Program-made: the position numbers and the translations under genes
NCBI GenBank assembly: GCA_963713755.1
Contig: CAVQMW010000005.1
Coordinates: forward strand, 1,455,119-1,519,118
Direction: 5' to 3'
Length of the DNA stretch: 64,000 bases
Source: an uncultured delta proteobacterium
Lineage (GTDB): Bacteria; Desulfobacterota; Desulfobacteria; Desulfobacterales; CAVQMW01
The notes under the pieces: model-generated
The model's input: the letters and a program-made list of their open reading frames with translations, nothing else
Database searches by the model: none
Told to the model about the DNA's origin: nothing
Part shown: piece after piece, positions 29,515-45,890 of the stretch
Numbering within the stretch: position 1 is the stretch's first letter
Layout: each line of letters begins with the position of its first letter

Positions 29515-30336
29515 CTAACTTAACCAGCGTTTCCTTCGTTTATAGTGTTTGACGTCGTGATAGCTCTTAGCTGCGCCTTGTTCCCCCAGGCCGAGGTAGA
29601 ACTCCTGGACATCCTTGTCCTGGAGCAGGCGCTCCACGGGACCGTCCAGCACCACCCGACCGGTTTCCATGATGTAACCGTATGAACTCACCGAAAGGGC
29701 CATCTGCGCGTTTTGCTCCACCAGCAGAATAGTGGTGCCCTCCTTGCGGTTGATCTCGCGGATGATGGCGAAGATCTCTTCCACCAGCAGGGGTGCCAGC
29801 CCCAGAGAGGGCTCGTCGAGCATCAACAGCCGGGGGCTGGCCAGCAGCCCCCGGCTGATGGCCAGCATTTGCTGTTCGCCTCCGGATAGGTAGCCGGCGG
29901 TCTGTTTGAGCCGGGTTTTGAGGATCGGGAAGTAGGTGAGACATTTATCCAGATCCTGCTTTACAGCCGAACGATTTTTTCGGATATAGGCGCCGCAGCT
30001 GAGATTTTCATCTACGGTGAGCTCTTCGAAAATTCGGCGCCCCTCCATCACCTGAAATATCCCCTGGCGCACAATCTGGTGGGGCGCCAGGCCGGTCAGG
30101 GAGGCTCCGTCAAACTCGATGGAGCCGTCGCTGATCTCCCCATCCTCCAGGGGCAGAAAACCGCTGATGGCTTTCAGGGTGGTGCTTTTCCCGGCGCCGT
30201 TGCTGCCCAAAAGGGCAATGATCTCCCCTTCGGGCACCTGCAGGGAGAGCCCCTTGAGCACCAGCACCACATGATTGTAGACCACCTCGATATTGTTCAC
30301 CTTCAGGATCGAGGGCCGGCGGGGTTGCGCTTCCAT
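29515..30336 (-). CDS. Liv-type ABC transporter ATP-binding protein (LivF-like).
   Basis: Walker A GSNGAGKST, signature LSGGEQQML and Walker B LMLDEPSLGLAP. Confidence 0.85.
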   Translation of the reverse strand: MEAQPRRPSILKVNNIEVVYNHVVLVLKGLSLQVPEGEIIALLGSNGAGKSTTLKAISGFLPLEDGEISDGSIEFDGASLTGLAPHQIVRQGIFQVMEGRRIFEELTVDENLSCGAYIRKNRSAVKQDLDKCLTYFPILKTRLKQTAGYLSGGEQQMLAISRGLLASPRLLMLDEPSLGLAPLLVEEIFAIIREINRKEGTTILLVEQNAQMALSVSSYGYIMETGRVVLDGPVERLLQDKDVQEFYLGLGEQGAAKSYHDVKHYKRRKRWLS

Positions 30337-31521
30337 CTACTCTTCCAAATAGATCCAGTCCGACGCCGGGTCAAAGCGGCCTTCCTTGGCGATATAGACT
30401 TTGCCCACGGCCGTGGCGTTGGTGCTTTTAAAGGTGACGATGCCGGCAAATCCCTGGGTATCCCAATCCTTGATCTGGGGCAGGGCGTCTTTCAGATTTT
30501 CCCCGGTAATGGGCAGCCCCAGTTCATGGCATTTTTTGGCTGCCTGGGTGAAGATCATGCCGGTGAACCAGCCCTGCATATAGGAGTTTGGGCGGTAGGT
30601 GACATCCGGGTGATGGCGCTGGTTAAACTCATGGATGGCCTGAATCATGGGGACATCCGTATGGTACCAGTAGGCATAGGGGTTGACCCCCATGAAACCC
30701 TCCCCATCGGGTCCCAGTTTGTCGAGTAGCATTTTGGACATGGTCCAGAAGGAACCCATAAACGTGGTTTCGAGGCCGAAGTCCTTGGCGCCCCGGATCA
30801 CCGCGGGAATGGGAGGCACCACATAGCCCTGGAAGATGCAGAAGTCGGGATTATTGCGTTTCAGGTCCAGCAGTTGGCTGGTCACATCCACAGCCCCCAC
30901 GGCGGTCACCTCCTCGGCCACGACCTCCACCCCCAGCTTTTCCGCCATCTCGCGGGCATAGGGGATGGGGTCGCGCCCAAACTCGGTATCGCTGTAGAAG
31001 AAGGCCACCGTGGGTTTTTGGCCCTCTTTCTTGGGATGGGCGGCAATGTATTTGAGCAGGATGCCGAACTGCTGGGCATAAGTAGGGCCGGAGACGAACA
31101 TGTAGGGGTTCTTGCCGCGGTCGGCCAGCTCTTCGGAAAAGGAGGTAGAGCCGTAGAGTACGTGGTAACGGTCGTTGATCTCCGGGGCGAGAGCCTTGCC
31201 CTGACCGGTGGATTCACCATAATTCATGGGCGGGCTGTGCTTGGCCATCTGCTTTTTGAAAGAGGCCACGGCGCGTTTAACGTCGTAGCCGGTATCTTCG
31301 TAGGTGTATTCGAACATCATCCCGGCCACGCCGCCCTGCTCATTGGCGTAGGCCAAGGCGTCCGCCAGGCCCTGGTGGATGTTCTTGCCGGCGAAGGCAA
31401 AACGGCCGGTGATGGGCTGTTGGCCTGTCACCTTGATGGCTTCGGCCCCCATAGCCAGAGGGGTCATGAGAAGAACGCATAGTAATGCCATCAGCCAAAC
31501 CCTGCAATGTCGCCTCTTCAT
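30337..31521 (-). CDS. Periplasmic substrate-binding protein (type I, LivK-like).
   Basis: Signal peptide MKRRHCRVWLMALLCVLLMTPLAMGA. 394 aa, positioned within the Liv-type operon. Confidence 0.75.
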   Translation of the reverse strand: MKRRHCRVWLMALLCVLLMTPLAMGAEAIKVTGQQPITGRFAFAGKNIHQGLADALAYANEQGGVAGMMFEYTYEDTGYDVKRAVASFKKQMAKHSPPMNYGESTGQGKALAPEINDRYHVLYGSTSFSEELADRGKNPYMFVSGPTYAQQFGILLKYIAAHPKKEGQKPTVAFFYSDTEFGRDPIPYAREMAEKLGVEVVAEEVTAVGAVDVTSQLLDLKRNNPDFCIFQGYVVPPIPAVIRGAKDFGLETTFMGSFWTMSKMLLDKLGPDGEGFMGVNPYAYWYHTDVPMIQAIHEFNQRHHPDVTYRPNSYMQGWFTGMIFTQAAKKCHELGLPITGENLKDALPQIKDWDTQGFAGIVTFKSTNATAVGKVYIAKEGRFDPASDWIYLEE

Positions 31522-31596
31522 CTCCTGCTCCTTTCGTTACGAGTATCCTCTTTCGGCGGGGCGACCCCCAGGGTCCGCCCGCCGGCCGGCTGTGGA

Positions 31597-32640
31597 TCAA
31601 TTTTCAAAAGGCCACAACCGAAAGTAGTTCTTTACCCGCCGCCACATCTCAGCCAGTCCGTGGGGCTCGAATACCAGAAAGACAACGATCAGCAGCCCGA
31701 ACACCACGGTCTGCAGGGGGTACAGATAACTCATAATCGTGGGACTGAGCCCCTGGAAAAAACCCATGATGCTTTGCAGCACTTCAGGAATCAGGGTCAT
31801 GAAAATAGCCCCGCAAATGGCCCCCAGCACCGACCCCAGGCCGCCCACGATGATCATGGCCAAATAGCGGATGCTCTCGTGGAGGGGGAAATGCTCCGGG
31901 GTGACGATCTTGAGCAGGTAGACATTGAGGCACCCCGCCACTCCGGCGTAAAAGGAGCTGGCCGCAAAGGCCAAAAGTTTGTAGTGAAACAGATTGATCC
32001 CCATGATTTCGGCGGAGATGTCCCGGTCGCGGATAGCGATAAAGGCGCGCCCTACACGGGTTCGAAACAGGTTCCGGGCGCCGGTCACGGCCACGATTAC
32101 GATGGGTAAGGTGACAAAATAGAAGCCGAACTCCGTGTTCAACTTGACGCCGAAGATTTCAGCGGTGGGCACATTGATACCCCGGATGCCACCGGTAACC
32201 GGCTCCCAGTGAATGAAGATAAACTCAAAGATCATTTGCGCGGCAAGGGTGGCGATACACAGATAGAGCCCTTTCATGCGCATGGAGGGCGCGCCCACGA
32301 CCACCCCCGCCAGGGCCGCGGCCAGCCCCGACAAGGGCAGGCAGACCAGAAAGGGCAATCCTAGACGGGTGGTCAGGATGGCGGCGGTGTAGGCGCCTAC
32401 ACCGACGAAGGCCGCATGCCCCAGGGAGATTTGGCCGGCCGCTCCGGTCAGGATATTGAGCCCCACGGCGGCGATGATGGCGACTCCGGTATGGTTGGCC
32501 ATGTAGAGTAAATAGGGACCGGCTAAAAAGGGAAAGATCAGCAGCGCGGCAAAGAGGATTCCCATCCACACCCAGGAGGTGGGGCTGGGAAAGACCGCCT
32601 CGTCGGCGGCATAGCTCTCTTTGAAATCTCCGATACGCAT
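31597..32640 (-). CDS. Liv-type ABC permease (LivM-like).
   Basis: 347 aa and polytopic, with TGAAGQISLGHAAFVGVGAYT. Confidence 0.8.
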   Translation of the reverse strand: MRIGDFKESYAADEAVFPSPTSWVWMGILFAALLIFPFLAGPYLLYMANHTGVAIIAAVGLNILTGAAGQISLGHAAFVGVGAYTAAILTTRLGLPFLVCLPLSGLAAALAGVVVGAPSMRMKGLYLCIATLAAQMIFEFIFIHWEPVTGGIRGINVPTAEIFGVKLNTEFGFYFVTLPIVIVAVTGARNLFRTRVGRAFIAIRDRDISAEIMGINLFHYKLLAFAASSFYAGVAGCLNVYLLKIVTPEHFPLHESIRYLAMIIVGGLGSVLGAICGAIFMTLIPEVLQSIMGFFQGLSPTIMSYLYPLQTVVFGLLIVVFLVFEPHGLAEMWRRVKNYFRLWPFEN

Positions 32641-32644
32641 ATAA

Positions 32645-33529
32645 TTACAGCCGCTCGATCTCCTCTTTGCCGAACAAGCCGTAGGGTTTGATCAGCAGGA
32701 TGATCACCAGCACCACAAAGGGCGCCAGGTTTTTAACGCCACCGCCCACATAGGGATCCAAATAGCCCCCGGCGATGTTCTCCACCAGGCCCACAATAAA
32801 CCCGCCCACCACCGCCCCGGCAATGGAGTCGAGGCCGCCCAGGATAACCACCGGAAAAATTTTAAGCCCGATATGGCCCAGAGTGGGCTGGATGCCGCCC
32901 ATATTGCCGATGATCACTCCCCCCAGGGAGGCGGCCACCGCGCCCAGGGACCAGGCCAGGGTGAACATGGCGCGCACATTGATTCCCATGGAGAAGGCCG
33001 CCATCTGATCGTTGGCCGTGGCCCGCATGGCCACTCCCACTTTGGTGTACTTGAACAGCAGCGCAAAGAGGATCACCGCGGCCATGGCGATTAAAAAGCC
33101 CCAAAACAGGTTGGAGCGGATGATGATATCTCCCATGATAATGGGCGCCCGGGGAAAAAGGGGCGGGAAGCTCTTGAAATCCGTGGACCAGATGATTTCA
33201 GCCGCGCCCATCAGGATCGAGGAGAGACCGATGGTGACCATGATGACGCTGATCGCGGGCTGGCCCAGCATATGGCGAAGAATGGCGCGTTCCACCCAGA
33301 ACCCGAGCAGTGCCGCGCAGCCCATCACCAGCACAAAGGCCGGTATGGCCGGAATCTCGGCCCCAACCATGAAAGTGTAGAAAAAGTAGGCCCCAATCAT
33401 CATGAACTCGCCGGTGGCGAAGTTGATGATACTGGTGGCTTTGTAGATCAAGACAAAACCCAATGCGATCAGGGCGTATACTCCACCCACGGCAATTCCG
33501 CTGACGATGAGCTGTGCCAGGATATCCAT
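32645..33529 (-). CDS. Liv-type ABC permease (LivH-like).
   Basis: 294 aa and polytopic, with INFATGEFMMIGAY. Confidence 0.8.
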   Translation of the reverse strand: MDILAQLIVSGIAVGGVYALIALGFVLIYKATSIINFATGEFMMIGAYFFYTFMVGAEIPAIPAFVLVMGCAALLGFWVERAILRHMLGQPAISVIMVTIGLSSILMGAAEIIWSTDFKSFPPLFPRAPIIMGDIIIRSNLFWGFLIAMAAVILFALLFKYTKVGVAMRATANDQMAAFSMGINVRAMFTLAWSLGAVAASLGGVIIGNMGGIQPTLGHIGLKIFPVVILGGLDSIAGAVVGGFIVGLVENIAGGYLDPYVGGGVKNLAPFVVLVIILLIKPYGLFGKEEIERL

Positions 33530-33530
33530 G

Positions 33531-34337
33531 TCAGACTTTCTTTTCTCCTAGATAGGCCTTGATCACCTCCGGGTGGCGCTGAACATCCCGCGGGGTGCCT
33601 TCGGCGATTTTCTCTCCGAAATTGACCACCAGGACCCGGTCGCTGATATCCATGATCAGGCGGATATCGTGTTCGATGAGCACGATGGTGACATCCCGCT
33701 CCTGCTGGATATCGAGAATGAAACGCGCCATGTCTTCGGTCTCCTCGGCGTTCATCCCGGCCACCGGCTCGTCCATGAGCAGCACTTTGGGCTGCATGGC
33801 CAACGCCCGGGCCAGTTCCACCCGTTTTCGCAGTCCATAGGGCAGCGATGCCACGGGGCGTTTGCGGATATGTTCAATTTCCAGAAAATCGATGATTTCC
33901 TCCTCGATTTCCCGCCTCAGGGCCATCTCCTCGCGATGGGCGGCACCCCAGTAGGCAAAGGCCGACAATAGGCCGGTTTTCAGGTGGGAATGTGCGCCCA
34001 GCTTGATGTTGTCCAGGACGGTCATTCCGCGGTAGAGGGCAATATTCTGAAAGGTGCGGGCCATTCCCAGTTTGGCCCGGCGGTCGCAGGAGAGCCGGGT
34101 AATCTCGCGCTCCATGAAGTAGATCCGGCCTTGGTCCGGCTTATAAAACCCGCCGATGATGTTGAGGATGGAGGTTTTACCGGCGCCGTTGGGGCCGATA
34201 ATGGCAAAGATTTCACCCGGGGCGACCTCAAAACTGATGCGGGTGAGGACGGCGAGACCGCCAAAGGCCAGACTCACATCCTCTGATTTGAGGATGGGGG
34301 GGTCCCCGGAGTTGCCCATGGCGGCCGTTTGCGGCAT
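33531..34337 (-). CDS. Liv-type ABC transporter ATP-binding protein (LivG-like).
   Basis: Walker A GPNGAGKTS and Walker B LLMDEPVAGMN. Confidence 0.85.
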   Translation of the reverse strand: MPQTAAMGNSGDPPILKSEDVSLAFGGLAVLTRISFEVAPGEIFAIIGPNGAGKTSILNIIGGFYKPDQGRIYFMEREITRLSCDRRAKLGMARTFQNIALYRGMTVLDNIKLGAHSHLKTGLLSAFAYWGAAHREEMALRREIEEEIIDFLEIEHIRKRPVASLPYGLRKRVELARALAMQPKVLLMDEPVAGMNAEETEDMARFILDIQQERDVTIVLIEHDIRLIMDISDRVLVVNFGEKIAEGTPRDVQRHPEVIKAYLGEKKV

Positions 34338-34551: not shown

Positions 34552-37029
34552 TCAGGATAGGGCGAAGTCCGTGGTTTTCACCAGCCCCTTGACCGGGATC
34601 ACGGGATGGCCGTCGGCATCCTCGCTGACCTGCGCCGGCCAGCTGAAATTGGGATCCAGGGCTTTAAAGTAGGCCAGGTCGTAGGGCAGCAATTTGAGGG
34701 AAAGGTCGCTATCGCCACCCTCGAACCTGGAAGAGAGGCCGAAATCCACTTCCCCCAGGGCCGTGCGGATGATGTAGCGGGGGATTTCCCGGCCGCTGCC
34801 TTCCCTCCGCACCCGGGTGGCGATGTCCACCACATCGTAAAGCGCCACCGGGTGGTTTTGGTTCCATTTTTCCTGGACAGGCAGGCCGGCCACATAGAGA
34901 TGATGAAATTCGATGGCGGCCTGGCGGCAGGCAAAAGCCAGTCGGTGGATATCTTCGGGGGTGTCATTGATTTTGCCCAGCAAGGGGGTGTTGTTGTACA
35001 CCGTAATGCCCTTGTTGTTGAGCCGCCGCACCAGGCGGGCATGGTCTTGGTTCACTTCCTCGGCGGCCAGAAACTGGGTTTCGATTTCGAGGCGCAGAGG
35101 GTTGACGATGGTCAACTGGTTCAAGGCGCCCAGGGCGTCCACCACCGCCGCGGTGTAGCTTTGCGGGGCGGTGTTAAATTTCAGGCTGCGCAGACGCACG
35201 GCATTGACATGGGGCGTATCCTGAAGTTCGCGGACGATCCAGCGGATCTGGGACAAGGCATCCACGGTGTCGCCGGAGGAAACGATGCGCACGTCACTGA
35301 TGCGTTCATCGCCGCGAATGTAGTACAGATCCTCCGGAACGGCGTTGACATCCAGTTCCACTCGGGTTTCGTGGACCCGCGAGAGGGTTCCCGAGCCGCT
35401 ATTGACGATGCCGGGGGTAATGCCTTCAAGCTCATCAATGAGCGGCCTTACGGCATCGCTGCTCTCGGGCTGGGGGGTGATGCCGCCGCCCAGACGCAGG
35501 GGCCGGGATCCCAGATATAAATTTTCATCTCCGATTTGGGCCATGTATTGAATGTCGATGGTGCCTTCCGCATTGACCCGGATATTGGTCAGTTCGTTGG
35601 CGATGGGCGCGAACTGTTTGAAGTAGTTCGGGGTGTAGGGGCTGCGGATCCACATGAAGTTGGGGTTTTCGGCCACCGGCTCCACGGCCCAGCCGCTGGT
35701 GTGCCAATCCATCTTGCCGATGGGCGTGGCGGTGCAGATCCGGGGGATCACCCGGTCGGAAAGATGAGCGCGCAGGTAATTGCCCGCTGCCAGGCCCTTG
35801 GCGATGGGCGTCCAGTAGACACTGTTGCCGTGGATGGGACTGCAGGGGATGTAAATATAGTGCAACTCCGCTCCGGCGCCCCGCAGCAGGCTGAAGAGCC
35901 GCACCAATTCGAGACCTTGGTCGTTGCAATTTTTCAGAAAAGGGGTTTGCACATAGACCGCAATGCCGCTTTTCACCAAATCGGTGATAATCATCAGGCT
36001 TTGGGGGGAGATCTCGTCAGGATGGATAAAGTGCGTGGCCACTTCCATGCGCTTGCCGCGCTGCTGCAACGCGAGGTTTTTTTGCTTCAGATAGTTGAGC
36101 ATCTCCCCGTCATGGGAGAGGAACAGGTGGGGATAATAAGCGATGGCGCGGGTGGCCAAACGCAGGGTCTGCACGTGGTCAATGGCCATGAGGCCTTCGA
36201 TGGCGGCCTCCATGTTTTTGCGATTCATAAAAGGGTCGCCCCCGGTGATCACAATCTCCTTGATGGCGGGGGAATTGGCTACGTGGGCCACGGCGCGCTT
36301 CACATCGGCCATGCGGGGGTTGGTTTCGTTGCGGGACTCCTTGTGCTTGCGGAAGCAGAAGCGGCAGTAAACCGGACAGCTCATGTTGAGCAGGAAAATC
36401 ACCCGATTGCGGTACATCTGTTCCAGTAGTCCCTGGTGAAACTGGCCGATCCAGGTGTTGGTGTGGCCGGCATCGTCCAGCTCTTGGGTAAAGGGCAGAT
36501 ATTGGTAGGCCACATTGCGGGAGACTTGCATCTGGCGGATGGTGTGCATGGAGAGCCGCACCGGGTAGGTCTCGATCACTTTTTGCAGGTCCGCCCGGTC
36601 CGCCTGGGGCACCTTGATGTTGACCGCTTGTTCCAACTGGTCAACGGTTTTAATGGAGATAAAGCGGTTGCCGGGCAGCACCACTTCCAGGATCGCCATG
36701 AGCAGCAGATGGGGCAGGGTGACCCCGTTGATGGTCGGCCGGCGGATGCCGTCCGCGGTGCTCTCCACGGCGGAGCCTAACAGATCGAGCAACCGGCGGA
36801 AGAATCCATGGGGATCGTTCGCATAGCCGCAGGCTTCCAGCAGCCGGGAGAATTTGGCGGGTCCCTCGCCGGTCTGGATGATGCCGTAAAAGTCCGGGCC
36901 GACCCATGATTTTACGCCGTAGTGCTCCAAGAAATGGGTCATGGCCGCCACCAGCTCGGAAAGAGGCGCCTGGTGTTCTTCACCTGAATGGGCGTAGGTG
37001 ATGGTCAATACCGTATCGTTCGCCGACAT
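34552..37029 (-). CDS. Double-length KamA-family (2,3-aminomutase-like) radical-SAM protein with a degenerate second module.
   Basis: CPVYCRFCFRKH (Cys triad at nt 36355-36378), IVITGGDPF and the KamA-type barrel order. The ATG at 37029 is preceded by an AGGAG RBS. The ORF is formally open to 37158. Confidence 0.8.
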   Translation of the reverse strand: MSANDTVLTITYAHSGEEHQAPLSELVAAMTHFLEHYGVKSWVGPDFYGIIQTGEGPAKFSRLLEACGYANDPHGFFRRLLDLLGSAVESTADGIRRPTINGVTLPHLLLMAILEVVLPGNRFISIKTVDQLEQAVNIKVPQADRADLQKVIETYPVRLSMHTIRQMQVSRNVAYQYLPFTQELDDAGHTNTWIGQFHQGLLEQMYRNRVIFLLNMSCPVYCRFCFRKHKESRNETNPRMADVKRAVAHVANSPAIKEIVITGGDPFMNRKNMEAAIEGLMAIDHVQTLRLATRAIAYYPHLFLSHDGEMLNYLKQKNLALQQRGKRMEVATHFIHPDEISPQSLMIITDLVKSGIAVYVQTPFLKNCNDQGLELVRLFSLLRGAGAELHYIYIPCSPIHGNSVYWTPIAKGLAAGNYLRAHLSDRVIPRICTATPIGKMDWHTSGWAVEPVAENPNFMWIRSPYTPNYFKQFAPIANELTNIRVNAEGTIDIQYMAQIGDENLYLGSRPLRLGGGITPQPESSDAVRPLIDELEGITPGIVNSGSGTLSRVHETRVELDVNAVPEDLYYIRGDERISDVRIVSSGDTVDALSQIRWIVRELQDTPHVNAVRLRSLKFNTAPQSYTAAVVDALGALNQLTIVNPLRLEIETQFLAAEEVNQDHARLVRRLNNKGITVYNNTPLLGKINDTPEDIHRLAFACRQAAIEFHHLYVAGLPVQEKWNQNHPVALYDVVDIATRVRREGSGREIPRYIIRTALGEVDFGLSSRFEGGDSDLSLKLLPYDLAYFKALDPNFSWPAQVSEDADGHPVIPVKGLVKTTDFALS

Positions 37030-37145
37030 GGTCTTTGCTCCTGTTGCGCGCTGGAATCGGAATGTTAAACCCCGTGAGGGCCCATCAATCCTATTGCCGC
37101 CGGCCGGCGGCCAGGGGCGGGTTTGAAACCCTTTTTTTCCGGCAT

Positions 37146-37213
37146 TTGACATTCTCATTTAAATCTGCCACTATTAACTATTATAGTAAATCATTTTCCA
37201 TTATAGTATGATC
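37146..37213. promoter_or_regulatory. Divergent promoter/operator region between the KamA-family gene and iclR.
   Basis: Plus strand: TTGACA at 37146-37151. Two direct repeats C(T/C)ATTATAGTA(A/T)(A/G)ATC lie at 37178-37193 and 37198-37213, 20 bp apart. On the minus strand each contains TATAAT (37185-37180 and 37205-37200). The latter has TTGGGG 17 nt upstream (37228-37223). Confidence 0.5.
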
Positions 37214-37233
37214 CTAATGCATCCCCAAAGCCA

Positions 37234-38007
37234 ATGTCAAAAGGAAAATACTACTTTTCCAAATCACTGGAAAAGGGTCTGAAAATATTGACACTTTTCG
37301 ACGCCGAGACGCCGGTGTTGACCCAGAGCGGCATCGCCCGGACCCTGGGGATGAATATGACCTCCACCTATCGTTACATCAACACCCTTCAAGAGTTGGG
37401 CTATTTGGAAAAGGATCTCAAAACCAAGGAGATCCGGCCCAGCATCCTATGTCAGTTGCTGTGCAACAACCTGACCCAGGCTACGGACCGGCTGCGGCTG
37501 GTCAAGGCCGTGGTGGATCGGATCCACCGTGAAAACAACATCAGCATCGACGTGGTATTGATCGTGGACGATACCCTCCGGCGCCTGTACCATCGGGTGG
37601 CCCAGGAGACCCTGACCTACAGCCTGCCGGACGAGGCCAAACATTGCTTGCACAATACGGCCCTGGGCAAGGCCTATTTATTCAGCTTGCCTGGAGACCA
37701 ACTCCCAGGGAAGATCGGTGCCCTAAAGTTGGCGGCGCGCACGTCCCAAACCATTGTGGATGCTGCGCTGCTGATCAAGCAGCTGCAAGCCTACAAGCGA
37801 CGCGGATACGCAATGTGCGCAGAAGAGTATCTGCAAGGATTGGTGGCCATTGGCGCGCCCCTGATGGACACCACCCGCGGCAAAGGGATCGGTGCGGTCT
37901 CCTTTGATTTTTCCATCCTGCAGCACAGTGCCGGGGAGATCGAGGCCAAATACGGAACAATGATCATCGAGACCGCCCAATCGCTGTCCGAAGTTCTGAG
38001 CGCCTAG
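37234..38007 (+). CDS. IclR-family transcriptional regulator.
   Basis: SLEKGLKILTLFDAETPVLTQSGIARTLGMNMTSTYRYINTLQELGYLEKD (wHTH), followed by a C-terminal IclR effector domain. Confidence 0.85.
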   Translation: MSKGKYYFSKSLEKGLKILTLFDAETPVLTQSGIARTLGMNMTSTYRYINTLQELGYLEKDLKTKEIRPSILCQLLCNNLTQATDRLRLVKAVVDRIHRENNISIDVVLIVDDTLRRLYHRVAQETLTYSLPDEAKHCLHNTALGKAYLFSLPGDQLPGKIGALKLAARTSQTIVDAALLIKQLQAYKRRGYAMCAEEYLQGLVAIGAPLMDTTRGKGIGAVSFDFSILQHSAGEIEAKYGTMIIETAQSLSEVLSA

Positions 38008-38063
38008 AACCCATCGGCCTGTCGGGTTTTCTGCTACCCGAATCGTGAAAAGGTAAGATTGCC

Positions 38064-38930
38064 ATGAAATCCGAAAGCTGGAAACCTTGGGCCCTGCTGT
38101 CGCCGGCCATGAGCGCGGTCTTTTTGCTGCTGGTGATTCCGGTCTGTTTTGTGGTGGTCTACAGTTTCTGGCTGCGGGCGCCCAGCGGCGCCGACATTCC
38201 GGCATTCCAGCTGGGCAACTACGCCAAGTTCTTCGAAGATTTCTTCTACCCCAAAATACTGATCCGCACCATCCGGATCGCCTTTGAAACCGTTTTTCTT
38301 TGTGTGGTGCTGGGCTACATCCCGGCCTACTACTTCTACCGCAGCGAGAGCCGCTACAAACAGGTGTTTCTGCTGTTGATCATGCTACCCTTCTGGGTGA
38401 GTTTTATCATCCGCACCATGAGCTGGATCAACATCATGGGGGATACCGGGCTGATCAACCATTTTCTGCTCAAGACCGGGCTGATCGAAACGCCCCTCTC
38501 CATGCTCTACAATGAGTTTACCGTTCTCATGGGGCTGATCATGTACCTTTTGCCCTTTATGGTGCTCAACATCTATGTCAGTCTGGAGGGGATCGACAAA
38601 AGCCTCTTGGAGGCGGCCCGCTGCATGGGTTGCACCGAGTGGCAGGCTTTCCGTGAAGTGACGCTGCCCTTGAGCCTGCCCGGAGTGAGCGCCGGCTGTC
38701 TACTGGTGTTCGTCCTTACCGCCGGCACCTATCTGCCCCCCATGATCCTGGGGGGTCCGGGCAACGACATGATCGCCAACCTCATCTTCAAGCGGGTCAT
38801 CGGGACTCTGGACTGGCCCTTTGGTTCGGCCATCAGCGTCATTTTGCTCAGCCTGTTGTTTGTGATCGTCTGGACTTACAACCGCTACCTGGGTATCAAT
38901 CAGATTTTCAAGAGCTTTCAAGGCAGCTGA
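38064..38930 (+). CDS. Pot-type ABC permease (PotB-like).
   Basis: 288 aa with 6 predicted TMS and the EAA-loop LLEAARCMGCTEWQAFREVTLP. Confidence 0.8.
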   Translation: MKSESWKPWALLSPAMSAVFLLLVIPVCFVVVYSFWLRAPSGADIPAFQLGNYAKFFEDFFYPKILIRTIRIAFETVFLCVVLGYIPAYYFYRSESRYKQVFLLLIMLPFWVSFIIRTMSWINIMGDTGLINHFLLKTGLIETPLSMLYNEFTVLMGLIMYLLPFMVLNIYVSLEGIDKSLLEAARCMGCTEWQAFREVTLPLSLPGVSAGCLLVFVLTAGTYLPPMILGGPGNDMIANLIFKRVIGTLDWPFGSAISVILLSLLFVIVWTYNRYLGINQIFKSFQGS

Positions 38931-38933
38931 CCC

Positions 38934-39731
38934 ATGAAACACTTCTCCCCGGGCTGGACTCTGATTCGCCTTTACACCCTGCTGGTCTACCTCTTCATGT
39001 TCGCCCCCATCGTGGTGGTGATCGTGCTGGCCTTCAACCCCAAACAGTTCGGCATTTTTCCCATGGAGGGGGTCAGTCTGCGCTGGTTCATCAAGCTGGC
39101 CCAAAACGAATCCATCATCGATGCTTTTAAAAACTCCCTGGTGCTGGGTTTTTTTACAGCGCTGATTTCCACGGGCGTCGGCATTTTAGCGGCCCTGGCC
39201 TTTATCCGTTTCGAGTTTCCCGGCAAAAACACCATCAATACCCTGCTGCTCTCGCCGATCATGATTCCCGAAGTGGTGCTGGGGGTGGCTCTGCTGCTTT
39301 TTTTGCGCTGGCTGCAGCAGCCCAAGAGTTTTGTGCTGCTGTTGATCGGCCATGTGGTGCTGACCCTGCCCTATGTGCTGCTCATTGTTCAGGCGCGGCT
39401 GGTGGGCATCAAGAAGGAGTACGAAGAGGCGGCCAAGTCCCTGGGGGCCAATGGCTTTCAAACCTTCAAGGAGATCACCTTCCCACTCCTGCTGCCGGCC
39501 GTGTTGGCCGGGGCTCTGTTCGCTTTTACCATCTCTTTTGATGATATCACCGCGACCCTCTTTTGGGCCACGGCCCAAAACCAGACGGTTCCGGTGAAAA
39601 TTTTCAGCATGTTGCGAAATTCCATCAGCCCAGAGATCAACGCCTTGGGCGCGGTGATGATCGTGCTCACCGTGGCCACCCCCTTGCTGGCGGGATATCT
39701 CTCCCGTAAGTTTTCCAAATTCAAGGACTAA
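38934..39731 (+). CDS. Pot-type ABC permease (PotC-like).
   Basis: 265 aa with the EAA-loop YEEAAKSLGANGFQTFKEITFP. Confidence 0.8.
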   Translation: MKHFSPGWTLIRLYTLLVYLFMFAPIVVVIVLAFNPKQFGIFPMEGVSLRWFIKLAQNESIIDAFKNSLVLGFFTALISTGVGILAALAFIRFEFPGKNTINTLLLSPIMIPEVVLGVALLLFLRWLQQPKSFVLLLIGHVVLTLPYVLLIVQARLVGIKKEYEEAAKSLGANGFQTFKEITFPLLLPAVLAGALFAFTISFDDITATLFWATAQNQTVPVKIFSMLRNSISPEINALGAVMIVLTVATPLLAGYLSRKFSKFKD

Positions 39732-39762
39732 TCCAACAACCTTCAACTGAAAGGAGACTCTG

Positions 39763-40926
39763 ATGGCTATCGTTACCCAAGAAAAACTGGATCGGATTAT
39801 GGAGGCTTATCAACAGGGCACCCTCAGCCGCCGTCACTTCATCAAATATCTTTCCATGGCCGGGGCTTGCCTGGGACTTACGGCCATGCCCTTGGGCGGT
39901 TTAACGCAAAAGGCCTGGGCGGCGAAGTCCATCCGTTTTGACGGCTGGGGAGGTTCGGTTTCCGAAGCGTTCCGGGAACACGCCTTCAAACCCTTCACCG
40001 AAGCGACCGGCATTGAGGTAATCGACGGCGAATTCGGCGATATGAACTCCTATCTCACCCGGGTCAAAGCCTCCTTCCCGCCGGGTGGAGAGTTCAACAT
40101 CGCCCATCTCAGCGCCGTGTTCGACTATGCCCGCTACGTGGACCTGGGATTCTCATCGGTGCTGGATGAGACCAAAATCCCCAATTTGAAAAATGTGATG
40201 TCCTCCATGATCAAACCCTTGCGGGATATCACCCAAGGCACGCTTTCGGCGGTGCCCTACGACCTGGGGCAAACCGGCATTGCCTACAACACCCAGCATA
40301 TCAGCAAGGAGAAGGCCGAGAAACTGGGGGCTTCCCTGCTGTGGGACAAGGAGCTCCAAGGCAAGCTGGGCAGTTGGGAGGGCGATTTCAGGACCAACAT
40401 GTGGTACGCGGCGCTGCACACCGGCCAAAGCCCCAACAACATGACCGATCTGGAGGCGATCTGGGCGGCGTTGCGCGAGCAGAGGGATCTGATGAAAAAG
40501 TATTGGGCCTCGGGGGCCGAATTGATGAGCCTGCTGGCCAACCAGGAGATCTACGCCACGGTGGCCTGGTCCGGTCGGGTAGCGGCCCTGCAGCAGGAAG
40601 GGCACCCCATCGGCTATCTCTCTCCCGAGGGCACTTACTCCTGGATGGAGTATCTATTTGTCCTCAAAGGGACCGATTTGGACGTGGCCCAGCAACTGCT
40701 CAACTTCATGTTGGAGCCCGCCGCGGCGATCGCCGTGGCCGAGGGCCAGAACTATCCGCCCAGCCTAGATCCCACCAAGGTGGAGCTCACCGAGAAGATC
40801 AAGCAGATGCCGGCCTTTGATCCCACCGGTAAGCTGGAAGGCTACCTCTTCGCCGATCCGGCCTACTGGAACGCCAACCAGGTGGAATGGACAGAGAAGT
40901 GGGACCGTATCAAGGCGGGCAGCTAG
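39763..40926 (+). CDS. Pot-type periplasmic substrate-binding protein with a twin-arginine signal.
   Basis: Tat consensus SRRHFIKYLSMAGACLGL and cleavage-like AWAAKS. A PotD/PotF-like SBP of 387 aa, with a strong RBS (AAAGGAG). Confidence 0.75.
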   Translation: MAIVTQEKLDRIMEAYQQGTLSRRHFIKYLSMAGACLGLTAMPLGGLTQKAWAAKSIRFDGWGGSVSEAFREHAFKPFTEATGIEVIDGEFGDMNSYLTRVKASFPPGGEFNIAHLSAVFDYARYVDLGFSSVLDETKIPNLKNVMSSMIKPLRDITQGTLSAVPYDLGQTGIAYNTQHISKEKAEKLGASLLWDKELQGKLGSWEGDFRTNMWYAALHTGQSPNNMTDLEAIWAALREQRDLMKKYWASGAELMSLLANQEIYATVAWSGRVAALQQEGHPIGYLSPEGTYSWMEYLFVLKGTDLDVAQQLLNFMLEPAAAIAVAEGQNYPPSLDPTKVELTEKIKQMPAFDPTGKLEGYLFADPAYWNANQVEWTEKWDRIKAGS

Positions 40927-41036
40927 CAGGCTAAACAGAAAACGATTCGCCTCTTGGGCCGCCGCCGCCCCTCCTATGTCAACGGGAGGGCAGTGGCGGC
41001 ATCCCGATTCAATCCCAACCGGGGGAGTACAAGACA

Positions 41037-42137
41037 GTGGCAAGCGGCAAGACCCAGCCCATGGTGCAGTTCAAAGGCATTTTTAAGCGGTTTGGCAAAG
41101 TGACCGCTGTGGAGAAAATGGATTTTGAAATCGAAGAGGGGACTCTGGTGACCCTGCTGGGGCCGTCAGGGTGCGGAAAGACCACCCTGCTGCGTATGGT
41201 GGCCGGGCTGGAGGAGCCCACCGAGGGGGATATCTTCATCAATGGCGTGCGGATCAACGATACCCCCATCCATCAGCGCAACCTGGGAATGATCTTCCAG
41301 AACTACGCCCTGTTTCCCCACAAAACCATTTATGAAAATGTCGCCTTCGGCCTGAAGTACCGCAATGTTCCTAAGGCGCAGATCCCGGATAAGGTGTCTC
41401 GGGCGCTGGAGATGGTCCGCTTGCCGGGGGTGGAAAAGCGCATGCCCAGCCAGCTCTCCGGCGGACAGCAGCAGCGCATCGCCATGGCCCGGGCGATTGT
41501 CATCGAGCCGGACGTACTGCTCATGGACGAGCCTCTCTCGGCCCTGGATGAAAATCTGCGGGAAGAGATGCGGCGGGAGGTGGACAACCTTCAGCGGATG
41601 CTCGGCGTCACCACCATTTTCGTCACCCACGACCAGCGCGAAGCCCTGAGCATGTCGGACAAGATCCTGGTGATGAAGGAGGGCCTTAAGCAGCAGGAGG
41701 GCGACCCCGAAACGGTTTACAATGAACCGGTTAACCATTTTGTGGCCGATTTTCTGGGCCACTCCAATTTCATCAACGGCGAGGTCGTAGAGGTCGGCAA
41801 CGATCATCTTAAGGTCAGGATCGAAACCGGCGATCTCCTCCTGGCGAAAAACAAAGGCGGATTCTCGACGGGGGATCCAGTGGAGATCATCGTCCGCGCC
41901 CAGCGCTTTGACGCCTTTCCCAGAGATGAATTCAAACCTGCGGAAGGCATGAACCATTTTGAAGGGCGCATCAAGGACCGCAGCTACATGGGCGGAGAGG
42001 TGAGCTATTTCATCGATTTGGGCGCCGGCCGTGAAATTCATATCATCAGCATGATGCGCACCCGGCTCTACAACATCGGTGAGACGGTGAGTGTGCAGGT
42101 CTCCCCCCACCACTGCCACCTGATTCCCCTGGCCTAA
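41037..42137 (+). CDS. Pot-type ABC ATP-binding protein (PotA-like).
   Basis: Walker A GPSGCGKTT, signature LSGGQQQRIAMARA, Walker B LLMDEPLSALD and a C-terminal TOBE-like domain. The start is GTG 41037 or ATG 41061. Confidence 0.85.
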   Translation: MASGKTQPMVQFKGIFKRFGKVTAVEKMDFEIEEGTLVTLLGPSGCGKTTLLRMVAGLEEPTEGDIFINGVRINDTPIHQRNLGMIFQNYALFPHKTIYENVAFGLKYRNVPKAQIPDKVSRALEMVRLPGVEKRMPSQLSGGQQQRIAMARAIVIEPDVLLMDEPLSALDENLREEMRREVDNLQRMLGVTTIFVTHDQREALSMSDKILVMKEGLKQQEGDPETVYNEPVNHFVADFLGHSNFINGEVVEVGNDHLKVRIETGDLLLAKNKGGFSTGDPVEIIVRAQRFDAFPRDEFKPAEGMNHFEGRIKDRSYMGGEVSYFIDLGAGREIHIISMMRTRLYNIGETVSVQVSPHHCHLIPLA

Positions 42138-42140
42138 GCC

Positions 42141-42395
42141 TGACTGTTGGACACACTTGACACTGGGGGTGTGTTGTCATGCTTCGAGCTTATCGGCTAC
42201 AGGCGCGACTACTGGATCTCCGCCCCCCGCCTAAAGCCTGCGGGGGCAGGCCCCGCGGAGATGACGTGCAGTCAGTAGGATCCGTCATTCCCGCGCAGGC
42301 GGGGCACGCAGTGAAGCTTTAGCGCTATCCATACTCAATATATTGAATTTATTTCGTAAATACTGCCCACAGTGTCAAGTGTGGCCAACAGTCAG
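42141..42395. mobile_element. 255-bp MITE (non-autonomous element) with 30-bp terminal inverted repeats and a 9-bp target-site duplication.
   Basis: Left TIR is CTGACTGTTGGACACACTTGACACTGGGGG (42141-42170). The reverse complement of the right end (42366-42395) is CTGACTGTTGGCCACACTTGACACTGTGGG, a 28/30 match. GGCCTAAGC flanks both sides (42132-42140 and 42396-42404, 9/9). No ORF is inside. Confidence 0.85.
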
Positions 42396-42442
42396 GGCCT
42401 AAGCAACGGTTTTTTTCTGGGACACCTGCCGGAGTCAAGGCC

Positions 42443-43276
42443 ATGGCCGACACGGTTGAAAACATCCTGGGCTCTCGGGTCCAGCACGGTCCTCACAACC
42501 AACGCATCTACCTGATGAAATTGGGCCCCCGGCATACGCCGGGACTTGTGGCCGCCTTGGATGATTTGGCCCGGCAAAAGAGTTACGGGAAAATCATTGC
42601 CAAGATTCCGGCCTCGGCCTGGGAGCCTTTTGAACGCGCCGGGTATCGAATCGAAGCGCGGGTGCCGGGATTGATCCGCAACCGCCATGAGGCTCTGTTC
42701 GTGGCTAAATATCCGGTCCCACGGAGAGCGCGGGAGTACCGGGACCCATTCGATTCAGCCTCTCCTCGACCTCCGAATTCCATTCGCGCCAGACAATTGC
42801 GCCCAAAAGCGCAGCCCTCCCATCCGGTTTCTCCCCTGATACCCGACGATGTCGAGGATATGCGCGCGATATATCGCCGGGTATTCCGCTCCTACCCCTT
42901 TCCCATCGACAACACTCACTACCTGAAGGGGATGATGAGGGCCGATGTTTTGTACTACGGGGTTCGAATGGAGGGGAGCCTGGCGGCCATCGCCGGCGCT
43001 GAGATGGATGCAACGGACCGCAACGTGGAGATGACGGACTTTGCCACCCGGCCTTCCTGGCGGGGCCGGGGTCTGGCCAAATCCCTGCTCACCCACATGG
43101 AGCGAACCTGCCGCGGGCTGGGTTTTTTAACCGCTTACACCATTGCCCGGTCGGCATCCGCGGGGATGAATCGGGTCTTTCAGTCGCGGGGATACCACCA
43201 GGGCGGGCGGCTCATTAACAACACTCAAATCAGCGGTAAAATCCAAACCATGACCGTTTGGTACCGCCGGCTATAG
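42443..43276 (+). CDS. AblB-family GNAT (putative beta-lysine N-acetyltransferase).
   Basis: 277 aa. Motifs: QHGPHNQRIYLMKL, YGKIIAKIPASAW, IYRRVFRSYPFPIDN, NVEMTDFATRPSWRGRGLAKSLL, YTIARSASAGMNRVFQSRGY and NNTQISGKIQTMTVWYRRL. The pattern is recalled from the AblB/YodP family, not searched. Confidence 0.65.
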   Translation: MADTVENILGSRVQHGPHNQRIYLMKLGPRHTPGLVAALDDLARQKSYGKIIAKIPASAWEPFERAGYRIEARVPGLIRNRHEALFVAKYPVPRRAREYRDPFDSASPRPPNSIRARQLRPKAQPSHPVSPLIPDDVEDMRAIYRRVFRSYPFPIDNTHYLKGMMRADVLYYGVRMEGSLAAIAGAEMDATDRNVEMTDFATRPSWRGRGLAKSLLTHMERTCRGLGFLTAYTIARSASAGMNRVFQSRGYHQGGRLINNTQISGKIQTMTVWYRRL

Positions 43277-43295: not shown

Positions 43296-44231
43296 TCATG
43301 ACATTTCCTTGCGGGCCGAGGCGAGCAGAAACCGGTGCATGGCTTGGCAGGCCGGAGAGGCTGCGCGAAGTTTATTGCGAATCAGGTAGAAACTGCGGGA
43401 CATGGCCAGGCCTTCCACTTCGACGGCTGCCAGCACACCTGCCCCAAGCTCGGTGTCGATGGCTCTTTTTGACAAAACCGATATGCCCAGCCCGGCCTTG
43501 ATCCCCTCTTTGACTGCCGTGGAAGAGCCCAGGCAGGCCCGCACCTCAAACCCATCGGTACCTGGGATGCCATTTTGGCGCAAGTAGGATTCCAGCATCT
43601 TCAGGGTTCCCGACCCTCTCTCCCTTAAAATCCAGGGGGCGCCGCACAACTCCGCCAGGGTTATGGTTTCCCGCTGCGCCCAGAGGTGGTCCCCGGCAAC
43701 GGCCAGTACCAGTTCGTCCCGCCACAGGGGCTGGCACAAAAGGTTGGGATGCCGGCCTTTGAAGCCGATCACGCCGATCTCGTAAGTTCCCTTCAGAACG
43801 CCCTTTTCAATGCTGCGGCTGTCGGCAACGGCCAGCTTGATGCTCAAGCGGGGATATTCGGCGTGGAACTGGCTGATGCAGCGGGGAAGAATGTACTCCC
43901 CAGGAATGGTGCTGCCGCCCATGGACACCTCGCCCTGCTCCCGCCCCAAAAAACGCTCCATTTCCAGCCGGCTGGTTTCCTTCATTTCCAGCAGTAGGGT
44001 GGCATGTTTATGCAGCAGTTCGCCGGCGGCGGTGGGAACCACCTTGCGGCCCAGGCGATCCAGCAGCTGCACGGTCATTTTACGCTCCAGGGTGGCAATG
44101 CGCTCGCTCACGGTGGCCTGGGCCAGGTGAACCGCTTCGGCGGCCTTTGAAAAACTACTCAATTCAACGACTTTACAGAAAATCTCAAGTTCCCGCAAAC
44201 CAAAGTCCATGGATTTCATTTTCTTGCCCAC
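43296..44231 (-). CDS. LysR-family transcriptional regulator.
   Basis: LRELEIFCKVVELSSFSKAAEAVHLAQATVSERIATLE. The start is GTG 44231 or ATG 44219. Confidence 0.85.
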   Translation of the reverse strand: MGKKMKSMDFGLRELEIFCKVVELSSFSKAAEAVHLAQATVSERIATLERKMTVQLLDRLGRKVVPTAAGELLHKHATLLLEMKETSRLEMERFLGREQGEVSMGGSTIPGEYILPRCISQFHAEYPRLSIKLAVADSRSIEKGVLKGTYEIGVIGFKGRHPNLLCQPLWRDELVLAVAGDHLWAQRETITLAELCGAPWILRERGSGTLKMLESYLRQNGIPGTDGFEVRACLGSSTAVKEGIKAGLGISVLSKRAIDTELGAGVLAAVEVEGLAMSRSFYLIRNKLRAASPACQAMHRFLLASARKEMS

Positions 44232-45890
44232 TCAATCGATGGAGGTTGCGCCGACGTTTTTTAAGATCTTGTCCCGGGCCGCGGTTTTGTTGAAGTAAAG
44301 TTTGTAGGCGATGTAGTACTTATTGATATTGGCAACATAAGACACCGTCTCACGGCCGATTTTTTCGGCGGCGATGCGTTCCACATGGCCGAACCAGCGA
44401 TTGGGATCCAACCCTCTTTCTTGGGCGCTCTTGCGCAGTTGCTTGATTTTCGCCGGCCCGGCGTTGTAGGCTGCCCAGGCAAAGTCCACCTGGGCCGCCG
44501 GGGAGATAGCCGGATCGCTGAAATAGCGTTTGCGGAGAAAATCGAGGTATTTCACTCCGGCGTGAATGTTGTTTTCGATCTTTTCGATCTGCTGGATGCT
44601 GACGGGCGCCCCCGCCGCCGTGCTGGGCAATAGCTGCATGATGCCCACCGCCCCGCTGGGGCTTTTTTTCTGCTGGTCCAGCTCAGATTCCTGATAGGCC
44701 TGGGCGGCAATGGCCAGCCAGTCGAAGCTGTACTGATCGGAATACTTTTCAAACAGGCCGACCAAGGTTTCAACTTTTTTGCGCTCTTTTTCGGTAAGTG
44801 GATTCTTGATCCATCGGGAGTCTTGGTAGTAGCGTTTGAAGAGAATATTGCCCAGCAAAGAGCCCTTCTTATTGATTTTAAGGTGCTCATTGAGGCTTTG
44901 CAGCAATTGCGGGCTCTCTTTGCGCACGGCCCAGGCGATGCGTCCGCCGCTGTGGATGGGGATATCTGTTTCAACGCGGATGTCGGGCAGGACCTCGGCC
45001 CATACCTCGGCAATGTGCTCATCGGCCACCGTCAGCTTCACCACTCCGGCATGCACCATCTCCAGGATATCTTCCGTGGCGAGAATCGATTCCGCGTTTA
45101 CGATCTTGACGAGGGGTAGATTTTGGTCTTTCAACCTGTCGTTCAGCGCCTTAAGATGGGCTGAATAACTGCTTTTGGCCCGCACATAGACTTCCTGCCC
45201 CGCCAGATCCTGTAGGGACTTGAGATCCGGAACCTCGTTGTTACGTACGATCACCTCTGACACTTCCGTTAAGTAGGGCTCGCTGAAGCTGACCTTTTTT
45301 TCGCGTTCAGGGGTAATGGTCAGCCCGGCCGCCGCGATATCGCCGTGCCCTTCGGCCAAAGCATCCAAGAGCTGATCAAAGGGAAGCGGAATGAAAACGA
45401 TTTTGATTTGATCATGAGCGTTTTTAACACCCTGGTTGAGATGTTTTTCATACTCCCGCAGCAATTCGTATTCAAAGCCCCGCGCCACCCCTTTATCCAG
45501 AAAGTAGTTGGATTTGCTGTAGGAAACTAGAGCGCGAATTACTCGCCGTTTGCGCATTTCAGGGAGATCATCCGTAAACGATTGGGTGACCCGTTGGACA
45601 ATGACGTTTTCAGCGTCCGGGGTGCTTTTTTGGGCGAAAAGCAGGGTTGCGGGATGGTTACCCGCAGCGGATTGGCGAAGATCGGCCATCGGCCAACTTA
45701 CGTGATCCGGCTGCTGCCCGGTTTCAACCCTGGCGGGCAGGGTACCTTCAAATAGGGTTCCGGAACCGGCTGGCAGCACCCCGGCGATCAACCCAGCCAG
45801 CATCATGAGCGCGGTCAGAGCCCCATGGTGTCGGGGAATGTGGATCATCATTATTAACCTCCATGGATGGATGGATAACCAGTTGTCCAA
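44232..45890 (-). CDS. MltF-like protein: family-3 solute-binding domain fused to an SLT lytic transglycosylase domain.
   Basis: The SBP_bac_3-like N-half contains FEYELLREY. The SLT motif is AQAYQESELDQQKKSPSGAVGIMQLLPSTA, followed by AAYNAGP. Confidence 0.75.
   Translation of the reverse strand: MDNWLSIHPWRLIMMIHIPRHHGALTALMMLAGLIAGVLPAGSGTLFEGTLPARVETGQQPDHVSWPMADLRQSAAGNHPATLLFAQKSTPDAENVIVQRVTQSFTDDLPEMRKRRVIRALVSYSKSNYFLDKGVARGFEYELLREYEKHLNQGVKNAHDQIKIVFIPLPFDQLLDALAEGHGDIAAAGLTITPEREKKVSFSEPYLTEVSEVIVRNNEVPDLKSLQDLAGQEVYVRAKSSYSAHLKALNDRLKDQNLPLVKIVNAESILATEDILEMVHAGVVKLTVADEHIAEVWAEVLPDIRVETDIPIHSGGRIAWAVRKESPQLLQSLNEHLKINKKGSLLGNILFKRYYQDSRWIKNPLTEKERKKVETLVGLFEKYSDQYSFDWLAIAAQAYQESELDQQKKSPSGAVGIMQLLPSTAAGAPVSIQQIEKIENNIHAGVKYLDFLRKRYFSDPAISPAAQVDFAWAAYNAGPAKIKQLRKSAQERGLDPNRWFGHVERIAAEKIGRETVSYVANINKYYIAYKLYFNKTAARDKILKNVGATSID

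Follow-up and report, generated by a model that had tools for sequence, protein, structure and literature searches.

Among the closest described systems, a KamA-family enzyme is linked to an acetyltransferase of the TIGR03827 type in methanogens, where AblA and AblB are a lysine 2,3-aminomutase (LAM) and a beta-lysine N6-acetyltransferase, and in Bacillus subtilis, as kamA-yodP. The acetyl-protected catabolism of beta-lysine in Pseudomonas reportedly employs a beta-lysine acetyltransferase, an N6-acetyl-beta-lysine transaminase and a deacetylase, and the yodT-yodP-kamA operon of B. subtilis is presumably a similar gene set. To our knowledge, the established substrates of KamA-family aminomutases are few (lysine, glutamate, arginine and the EF-P pathway). 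A 64,000-nucleotide stretch of DNA from an uncultured delta proteobacterium of the Desulfobacterales (contig CAVQMW010000005.1, positions 1,455,119 to 1,519,118 of the forward strand; hereafter the window) contains a long gene for a KamA-like radical S-adenosylmethionine (radical-SAM) and pyridoxal phosphate (PLP) protein, here called KamA2, which is divergent from an operon comprising an iclR regulator gene, genes for a Pot-type ATP-binding cassette (ABC) importer and a gene for a GNAT N-acetyltransferase. An earlier note on this DNA had described these genes, together with an insertion resembling a miniature inverted-repeat transposable element (MITE), as a candidate beta-lysine-type locus; each of these features was found where it had been placed. 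The window holds a cut-down version of a gene module that occurs in marine sulfate-reducing bacteria and is as yet uncharacterised, and it is somewhat probable that this reduced copy is functional and serves the inducible import of an amine-bearing amino-acid-like solute and its conversion via a beta-amino-acid intermediate.

KamA2, its two halves and its pocket

KamA2 is encoded on the reverse strand in an open reading frame (ORF) of 868 aa (34552-37158), recognised by a Radical_SAM Pfam domain and by alignment with homologues, whose common start is the ATG at 37029 (34552..37029, 825 aa). There are more than 1000 homologues, and the 820-aa forms in Desulfobacterales are 70-76% identical. The best 120 homologues fall within this same range, with source names, where given, that are mostly those of Desulfobacterales metagenome-assembled genomes, and public annotation of the homologues is limited to 'radical SAM protein' or 'lysine 2,3-aminomutase'. 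Full-length members extend to about 38% identity, below which single-domain KamA proteins are found at about 30%. Of 172 columns with a conservation of 98% or more among 128 homologues, KamA2 of the window retains 171. No description of the tandem KamA family or of its module was found in the accessible literature.

KamA2 scores below the cutoffs of the AblA model (TIGR03820; 170.6 bits, cutoff 525.4), the KamA-family model (TIGR00238; 162.3 bits, cutoff 199.2) and the glutamate, arginine, EpmB and AblA_like_2 aminomutase models, and its matches to KamA-type models are confined to residues ~168-481 of the 868-aa ORF. The LAM_C domain (PF12544) was not matched in a domain scan of KamA2; it is present in the canonical LAMs of three related loci (L053, L077 and L083; L numbers designate related loci, and P numbers proteins). 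The closest sequence match in the PDB is the LAM of Clostridium subterminale (2a5h, E 7e-21), which was also the sole close solved fold in a Foldseek search (E 2.6e-19) with an AlphaFold2 single-chain model of KamA2 (predicted local distance difference test 88, predicted template modelling score 0.91).

The gene had been described earlier as a double KamA gene. Internal duplication is borne out by hhalign comparison of the N-half and C-half profiles of 16 family members (probability 99.85%, E 6.8e-31, 243 columns, 22% identity), but the product is not two aminomutases: it consists of one predicted catalytic domain (approximately residues 125-480; 35590..36657, reverse strand), delimited by alignment with 2a5h and the canonical LAMs of L077 and L083, and a degenerate duplicate of the KamA core (approximately residues 520-825; 34555..35472, reverse strand), delimited by hhalign and column comparison. 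The N-half has the CxxxCxxC motif (C218, C222 and C225, at nucleotides 36355-36378, equivalent to C125, C129 and C132 of LAM), a GGD motif aligned to G170-G171 of LAM, K439 (nucleotides 35713-35715) at the position of the PLP lysine Lys337, R227 at the position of R134, and equivalents of His230 and Gln258. The radical-SAM/PLP motif set (CxxxCxxC, GGD and the PLP lysine) is complete in the N-half only. In the C-half, CxxxCxxC has gone through deletion, GGD has become SSG and the PLP lysine has become glutamate, and this second copy looks catalytically dead. As KamA2 has no LAM_C domain, unlike the canonical LAMs in relatives, the dead C-half most likely stands in for the partner subunit of the classical oligomer.

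In the LAM structure, Asp293 and Asp330 are said to hold the epsilon-ammonium group of lysine, and Arg134 its carboxylate. The positions of D293 and D330 are occupied by Ser397 and Ala434 in KamA2, and the same Ser/Ala pair is found in 6 of 7 aligned N-domains of the family, down to 41% identity; the most distant aligned member (P0256, ~37%) has His and Pro. The Arg134 equivalent is kept in the aligned N-domains. Both aspartates are kept in 2a5h, as they are in the canonical LAMs whose genes neighbour KamA2 in L077 and L083. Lysine or beta-lysine is a doubtful substrate for KamA2, because both aspartates are replaced and all of the aminomutase cutoffs are missed, and the beta-lysine-type label previously attached to the locus is not sustained. 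As judged from these residues, binding of free lysine by KamA2 seems unlikely; with the carboxylate arginine kept and both epsilon-ammonium aspartates replaced by Ser/Ala, the more likely substrate is an alpha- or beta-amino acid that would probably have an uncharged distal end.

A conserved module and its trimmed copy

A set of 92 related loci was compared by tblastn (all but the last two, short contigs of the distant family members P0256 and P0244 that showed no neighbouring genes of use) and by ORF clustering. The recurrent partners of KamA2 are an M23-like protein, a Pot-type importer, a proline-racemase-type enzyme (ProRac), a YtcJ-type Amidohydro_3 protein, an AblB-type GNAT and a class-I aminotransferase. 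Among the 19 loci in which KamA2 is flanked by 9 kb or more on either side, the M23-like gene was found in 16, the Pot-type importer with its binding protein in 13, ProRac in 13, Amidohydro_3 in 12, IclR in 12, the aminotransferase in 5 and the GNAT in 5, the last count being a lower bound because the commonest arrangement puts the GNAT gene at the edge of a 10-kb flank. The M23-like gene lies immediately downstream of KamA2 in 46 of the 65 loci that have enough downstream sequence. The genes are arranged in at least three ways. In the closest relatives (L007, L015, L019/L009 and L024), the order is GNAT-aminotransferase-Amidohydro_3-ProRac-ATPase-binding protein-PotC-PotB-IclR divergent from KamA2-M23; a second order, on one strand, is ProRac-Amidohydro_3-(sigma54 activator)-PotBCDA-KamA2-M23; and a third is (aminotransferase)-GNAT-KamA2 convergent with Amidohydro_3-ProRac-importer. 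Some loci have IclR as the regulator, others a sigma54 activator. An importer of the polar-amino-acid type (SBP_bac_3) takes the place of the Pot-type importer in four loci (L028, L029, L057 and L080), where the binding protein most resembles those for cystine and Lys/Arg/Orn, and in L087 the gene next to KamA2 encodes an OpuAC binding protein. Thus, the linkage has been kept through rearrangement and non-orthologous replacement of the importer, which is strong evidence for one functional unit to which uptake is integral. The expectation that the long KamA gene, the importer operon and the GNAT would be co-conserved is thereby supported, these being linked in many relatives in several gene orders, and an IclR-controlled uptake-plus-modification system remains preferable to a bare ablAB pair, as the earlier note had proposed.

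The 64-kb window contains none of the genes for ProRac, Amidohydro_3, the aminotransferase and the M23-like protein, and tblastn detected no remnant of the M23-like gene downstream of KamA2 there. Reduced gene sets are also present in four relatives (L014, L028, L029 and L080), and the module is therefore itself modular. In the window only uptake, amino shift and acetylation appear still to be encoded together.

The last gene of the window's operon (42443-43276, forward strand) encodes a GNAT of 277 aa that passes the GNAT_ablB model TIGR03827 (269.4 bits, cutoff 205.1; residues 11-277 on profile positions 2-266), in agreement with the AblB family membership suggested earlier; the module GNATs of relatives also pass (292.6 bits). 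Its best database relatives are 48-52% identical and include the module GNATs P0122 (in L010) and P0189 (in L009), because of which it is counted as the module's orthologue; two more of these matches come from contigs equal in length to contigs with KamA2 matches. Of the 47 columns conserved in its family, the GNAT retains 46, as well as the RGRGLA acetyl-CoA loop. The gene is ~5.4 kb from KamA2 in the window, and in relatives it either closes the operon or immediately precedes KamA2. It is fast-evolving in all lineages (50-63% identity where KamA2 is 68-74% identical; 44-52% for pairs that include the window). Acetylation of the N6 amine of beta-lysine by this GNAT is doubtful, because its partner aminomutase seems not to be lysine-specific.

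The importer is encoded on the forward strand by genes for a PotB-like permease (38064-38930) and a PotC-like permease (38934-39731), both with BPD_transp_1 domains, a PotD/PotF-family binding protein (39763-40926; SBP_bac_8, SBP_bac_6 and TIGR01409) and a PotA-like ATPase with a TOBE domain (41037-42137; ABC_tran and TOBE_2). Its description as Pot-type holds at the family level, PotB and PotC being the best NCBIfam matches of the permeases, but not beyond, as all four components fall below the PotABCD equivalog cutoffs (PotA 367.8 bits, cutoff 482; PotB 190.1, cutoff 348; PotC 216.7, cutoff 326; PotD 59.2, cutoff 582). Identity to the permeases of relatives is 88-95%. The binding protein has the twin-arginine translocation (Tat) motif that had been noted, SRRHFIK (residues 22-28, nucleotides 39826-39846), and passes TIGR01409 (26.7 bits, cutoff 16.7); 29 of 32 orthologues share the motif. 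The solved structures nearest to the binding protein are of proteins with putrescine or spermidine as ligand. Residues of the PotD ligand box, which we take to be polyamine contacts in PotD, are partly kept (W34, S83, D168, W229, W255 and Y293, with D257 replaced by Glu) and partly lost (E36, Y37, Y85 and E171).

The partner proteins of relatives include enzymes of several types. In ProRac (345 aa), the two catalytic cysteines (YLCGH and DRSPCGTG) are in place. Its nearest relatives are true proline racemases (7pb3, E 2.6e-74), and proline racemase is its best NCBIfam match, but it remains under all equivalog cutoffs. Its gene overlaps that of Amidohydro_3 by 4 nt in L008, L009 and L010, which suggests translational coupling. 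The YtcJ-type Amidohydro_3 protein (542 aa) has structure matches only to the uncharacterised 3icj and 3igh. The M23-like protein (220 aa), encoded at L007 12476-13138 and in 47 other loci at a distance from KamA2 of mostly 13-20 nt and up to ~100 nt, has retained both zinc motifs of M23 peptidases, HxxxD and HxH; in NCBIfam it matches only an inner stretch of NF004799, a 1015-aa 'hypothetical protein' model. No N-terminal signal sequence was seen on reading the M23-like protein, which is therefore probably a cytoplasmic M23-type hydrolase, closely tied to the radical-SAM enzyme by gene position. Occasional neighbours are a canonical LAM gene (L053, L075, L077 and L083), an ornithine-oxo-acid transaminase gene directly after KamA2 (L083; 541 bits, cutoff 378), genes for MttB-family methyltransferases (L075 and L083) and a gene for an MscS channel inserted in the operon (L008).

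Three further proteins were noted in relatives. A conserved ORF of ~110 aa that matches no family lies between the ATPase gene and KamA2 (L036 2138-2476; also L037, L061, L076, L084 and others), and belongs to the single-strand, sigma54-regulated form of the module. In a clade at 56% identity, two conserved proteins (~420 aa and 460-490 aa) without Pfam or NCBIfam match flank the canonical LAM upstream of KamA2 (L077 4712-6001 and 8334-9812; L083 5520-6758 and 8493-9878).

Control region, insertions and surroundings

The regulator gene iclR (37234-38007, forward strand) is divergent from KamA2, and its product has HTH_IclR and IclR_C domains (PF09339, 48.5 bits; PF01614, 65.7 bits; both over cutoff), is 62-72% identical in relatives and matched no equivalog-level model in an NCBIfam scan. 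The divergent control region (37146..37208, forward strand) contains TTGACA (37146-37151) followed by ACTATTATAGT (37177-37187) and CCATTATAGT (37198-37207). The layout TTGACA ... ACTATWATAGT ... CTATWATAGT is found just upstream of iclR in all 27 relatives with a divergent iclR, and the palindromic boxes, which would overlap the promoter of the operon, are candidate IclR operators.

Between the KamA2 start and this block of TTGACA and operators, the window has a GC-rich insertion of ~76 nt (37071-37145) that holds a palindrome, GCCGCCGGCCGGCGGC, and a hairpin, GGGTTTGAAACCC, followed by a T-run. The insertion is missing from all 27 relatives that share the divergent arrangement, and may alter the KamA2 promoter.

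The MITE-like element (42140-42395) has a 256-bp body with 31-nt terminal inverted repeats that are 94% complementary, and is flanked by a perfect 9-bp direct repeat, GGCCTAAGC (42131-42139 and 42396-42404; 42131..42404 with the duplications). Inverted repeats, target-site duplication, small size and the lack of a transposase are features of a MITE, and the element shows all of them. The repeat arm has 2 matches in the window where 0 are expected; there is one copy of the element in 64 kb and none in 90 related loci. As RNA, the element would form a long hairpin (z = -5.9). Excision of the element with one copy of the repeat leaves 38 nt from the ATPase stop to the GNAT ATG at 42443, and the GNAT gene ends the operon in the closest relatives, which favours the earlier suggestion that it belonged to the importer operon before the insertion. 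The ancestor was not simply importer-GNAT, however: the element occupies the exact site of ProRac, Amidohydro_3 and the aminotransferase in the closest relative (76% KamA2 identity).

Directly downstream of KamA2 on the same strand is a five-gene operon for a LIV/Urt-type ABC importer (29515-34337, reverse strand; LivG-, LivH-, LivM-, binding-protein- and LivF-like), which fills the position of the M23-like gene in relatives and has a promoter-like site (34415-34387) suggesting that it is a separate unit. On the other side, at 43296-45890 on the reverse strand, are a gene for a LysR regulator that just passes the 'selenium metabolism-associated' model NF040786 (256.8 bits, cutoff 250) and, after it, one for an MltF-like lytic transglycosylase, both convergent with the GNAT gene. 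There are no tRNA genes and no Rfam families at the gathering threshold in the 64 kb.

Possible function and comparison with known systems

The module could operate as follows. IclR would bind the two palindromic ACTATWATAGT boxes beside the conserved TTGACA, and the rightward promoter would give rise to the Tat-exported PotD-family binding protein, the ABC importer and, at the operon end, the AblB-type acetyltransferase. Leftward, KamA2 would be produced, of which the N-half, with the sequence features of a radical-SAM/PLP 2,3-aminomutase, would carry out a radical amino shift on a non-basic amino acid, and the dead C-half would substitute for the second subunit found in the lysine-aminomutase dimer. 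N-omega-acylated diamino acids are favoured as substrates, as they would be compatible with a neutral pocket and with the presence of an AblB-type GNAT, hydrolases and lysine-type neighbours; speculatively, the reaction might be N-epsilon-acetyl-lysine <-> N-epsilon-acetyl-beta-lysine. The GNAT might acetylate a free amine of the substrate or product, making or restoring the acetyl group. In relatives, the epimerase, amidohydrolase, aminotransferase and M23-type hydrolase look like an extension of the module to a catabolic route. More tentatively, and with considerable doubt, the module might be an anaerobic pathway, new to science, by which marine sulfate reducers scavenge an abundant nitrogenous solute, for which N-acetylated diamino-acid osmolytes, among them N-epsilon-acetyl-beta-lysine from methanogens or anaerobic methanotrophic (ANME) archaea, are candidates, using a radical-SAM 2,3-aminomutase of new specificity in which a dead domain replaces the partner subunit.

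Several points weigh against this functional proposal. The argument for a neutral pocket consists of two aligned positions and the roles that the LAM literature assigns to the residues. That IclR co-regulates KamA2 is deduced from position only, and the window carries the extra ~76-nt insertion. The missing partner genes might sit elsewhere in the genome, the analysis having covered 64 kb. Acetylation may be accessory, because the GNAT and the aminotransferase are found in only a minority of long loci. An acyl-lysine substrate leaves the proline-racemase-type enzyme, with its Cys/Cys pair, unexplained, and the ornithine aminotransferase directly after KamA2 in one relative points towards ornithine/proline chemistry.

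The GNAT that passes the AblB model, the LAM as closest known structure, the marine and hypersaline sediments from which the contigs derive, the MscS channel in the operon of L008 and the OpuAC binding protein adjoining KamA2 in L087 would all suit the synthesis of an osmolyte, in which KamA2 would be a variant lysine 2,3-aminomutase and the GNAT an AblB, together making N-epsilon-acetyl-beta-lysine from imported or internal lysine, with the importer serving for the precursor or the osmolyte; the window's set of importer, aminomutase and GNAT indeed resembles ablAB plus uptake. This is unlikely, however, given that Asp293 and Asp330 are replaced in the family while true LAMs nearby keep both, that the AblA score is so far below its cutoff, that the GNAT is missing from many loci, and that the commoner partners (two hydrolases, an epimerase, an aminotransferase and substrate-type regulators) look catabolic. 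An ornithine- or proline-centred pathway would instead account for ProRac, with its catalytic cysteines and its closeness to true proline racemases, for the coupled ProRac and Amidohydro_3 genes, for the ornithine-oxo-acid transaminase of L083 and for the MttB-family methyltransferases: an imported proline or ornithine derivative (an N-acyl or cyclic imino acid) would be processed by the amidohydrolase and ProRac to give an amino acid similar to ornithine, citrulline or glutamine, on which KamA2 would act. PLP aminomutase chemistry requires a primary amine, and proline itself is thus impossible as a substrate of KamA2; ProRac is lacking from loci with a polar-amino-acid type importer, as well as from the window, and the transaminase and methyltransferase links are seen in one or two loci only, so that this pathway is considered quite unlikely.

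The loss of four partner genes and the two insertions, one of them in the control region and the other placing a strong hairpin in the transcript between ATPase and GNAT, could mean that the window holds a decaying remnant that is no longer a working pathway. All seven remaining genes are intact, however, all but one of the conserved columns are kept in KamA2 and in the GNAT alike, both operator boxes and TTGACA are retained, and reduced sets recur in the four relatives mentioned above, all of which makes decay very improbable. It is hardly credible that an ordinary polyamine importer and a polyamine acetyltransferase merely happen to adjoin an unrelated radical-SAM gene: although, among named families, the importer scores best with PotA, PotB, PotC and PotD and the nearest solved binding proteins bind putrescine or spermidine, no Pot component reaches its equivalog cutoff, the GNAT matches AblB and not SpeG-type models, and the linkage persists through at least three gene orders in relatives at 55-76% identity. 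Two other candidates were set aside. An ectoine-type substrate was considered for the cyclic imino-acid epimerase, ring amidohydrolase, GNAT and aminotransferase, but known ectoine catabolism can do without a radical step and the transporter families do not match. A role in modification of proteins or of ribosomally synthesised and post-translationally modified peptides was considered for the radical-SAM, peptidase, GNAT and ABC genes, but was rejected, as the ABC system is a binding-protein-dependent importer.

Import and conversion of an amino-acid-like solute thus remains the preferred explanation. KamA2 represents a distinct and highly conserved family of ~820-aa proteins, many of them in Desulfobacterales, which are major carbon oxidisers of marine sediment, and both its pocket and its gene partners argue for a substrate other than the established ones. 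Naming that substrate would add a new radical-SAM reaction, and probably a new route of uptake or catabolism for a nitrogen-rich solute in anoxic sediments. The fusion of a live and a dead core would illustrate, as a clean case from nature, how a homodimeric radical enzyme can become a single-chain pseudo-dimer. The annotation 'lysine 2,3-aminomutase' should be avoided for these genes, and a match to TIGR03827 is by itself insufficient for inferring synthesis of N-epsilon-acetyl-beta-lysine.

With the polyamine importers PotABCD and PotFGHI, the importer shares its four-component architecture, its protein families and part of the aromatic/acidic ligand box; it differs in the scores of its components, all under equivalog cutoffs, in the Tat signal of its binding protein, in the loss of several spermidine contacts and in its substitution by a polar-amino-acid type importer in some relatives. 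The N-half of KamA2 shares CxxxCxxC, GGD, the PLP lysine and the equivalents of Arg134, His230 and Gln258 with LAM of C. subterminale, but the identity is ~20%, Ser and Ala replace Asp293 and Asp330, there is an extra N-terminal region of ~125 aa, and a C-terminal pseudo-domain would lie where LAM uses a second subunit. Like the acetyl-protected catabolism of beta-lysine, the module of relatives combines an aminomutase, a GNAT, an aminotransferase and amide hydrolases, which would allow an amine to be protected, the product transaminated and the protecting group removed; in contrast, its aminotransferase is of class I and not class III, its hydrolases are of the YtcJ and M23 types, it includes a proline-racemase-type enzyme, and its aminomutase pocket is not lysine-like. 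No beta-keto-acid cleavage enzyme was found near the KamA2 module. As in the AblA/AblB pair of methanogens and kamA-yodP of B. subtilis, a KamA-family enzyme is linked here to a TIGR03827 GNAT, and the two are adjacent in some relatives. KamA2 differs from AblA in being a fusion of a live and a dead core that lacks LAM_C and both lysine-binding aspartates and fails the AblA and KamA cutoffs, and the pair, instead of standing alone, is embedded in a module of importer, regulator, hydrolases and epimerase.

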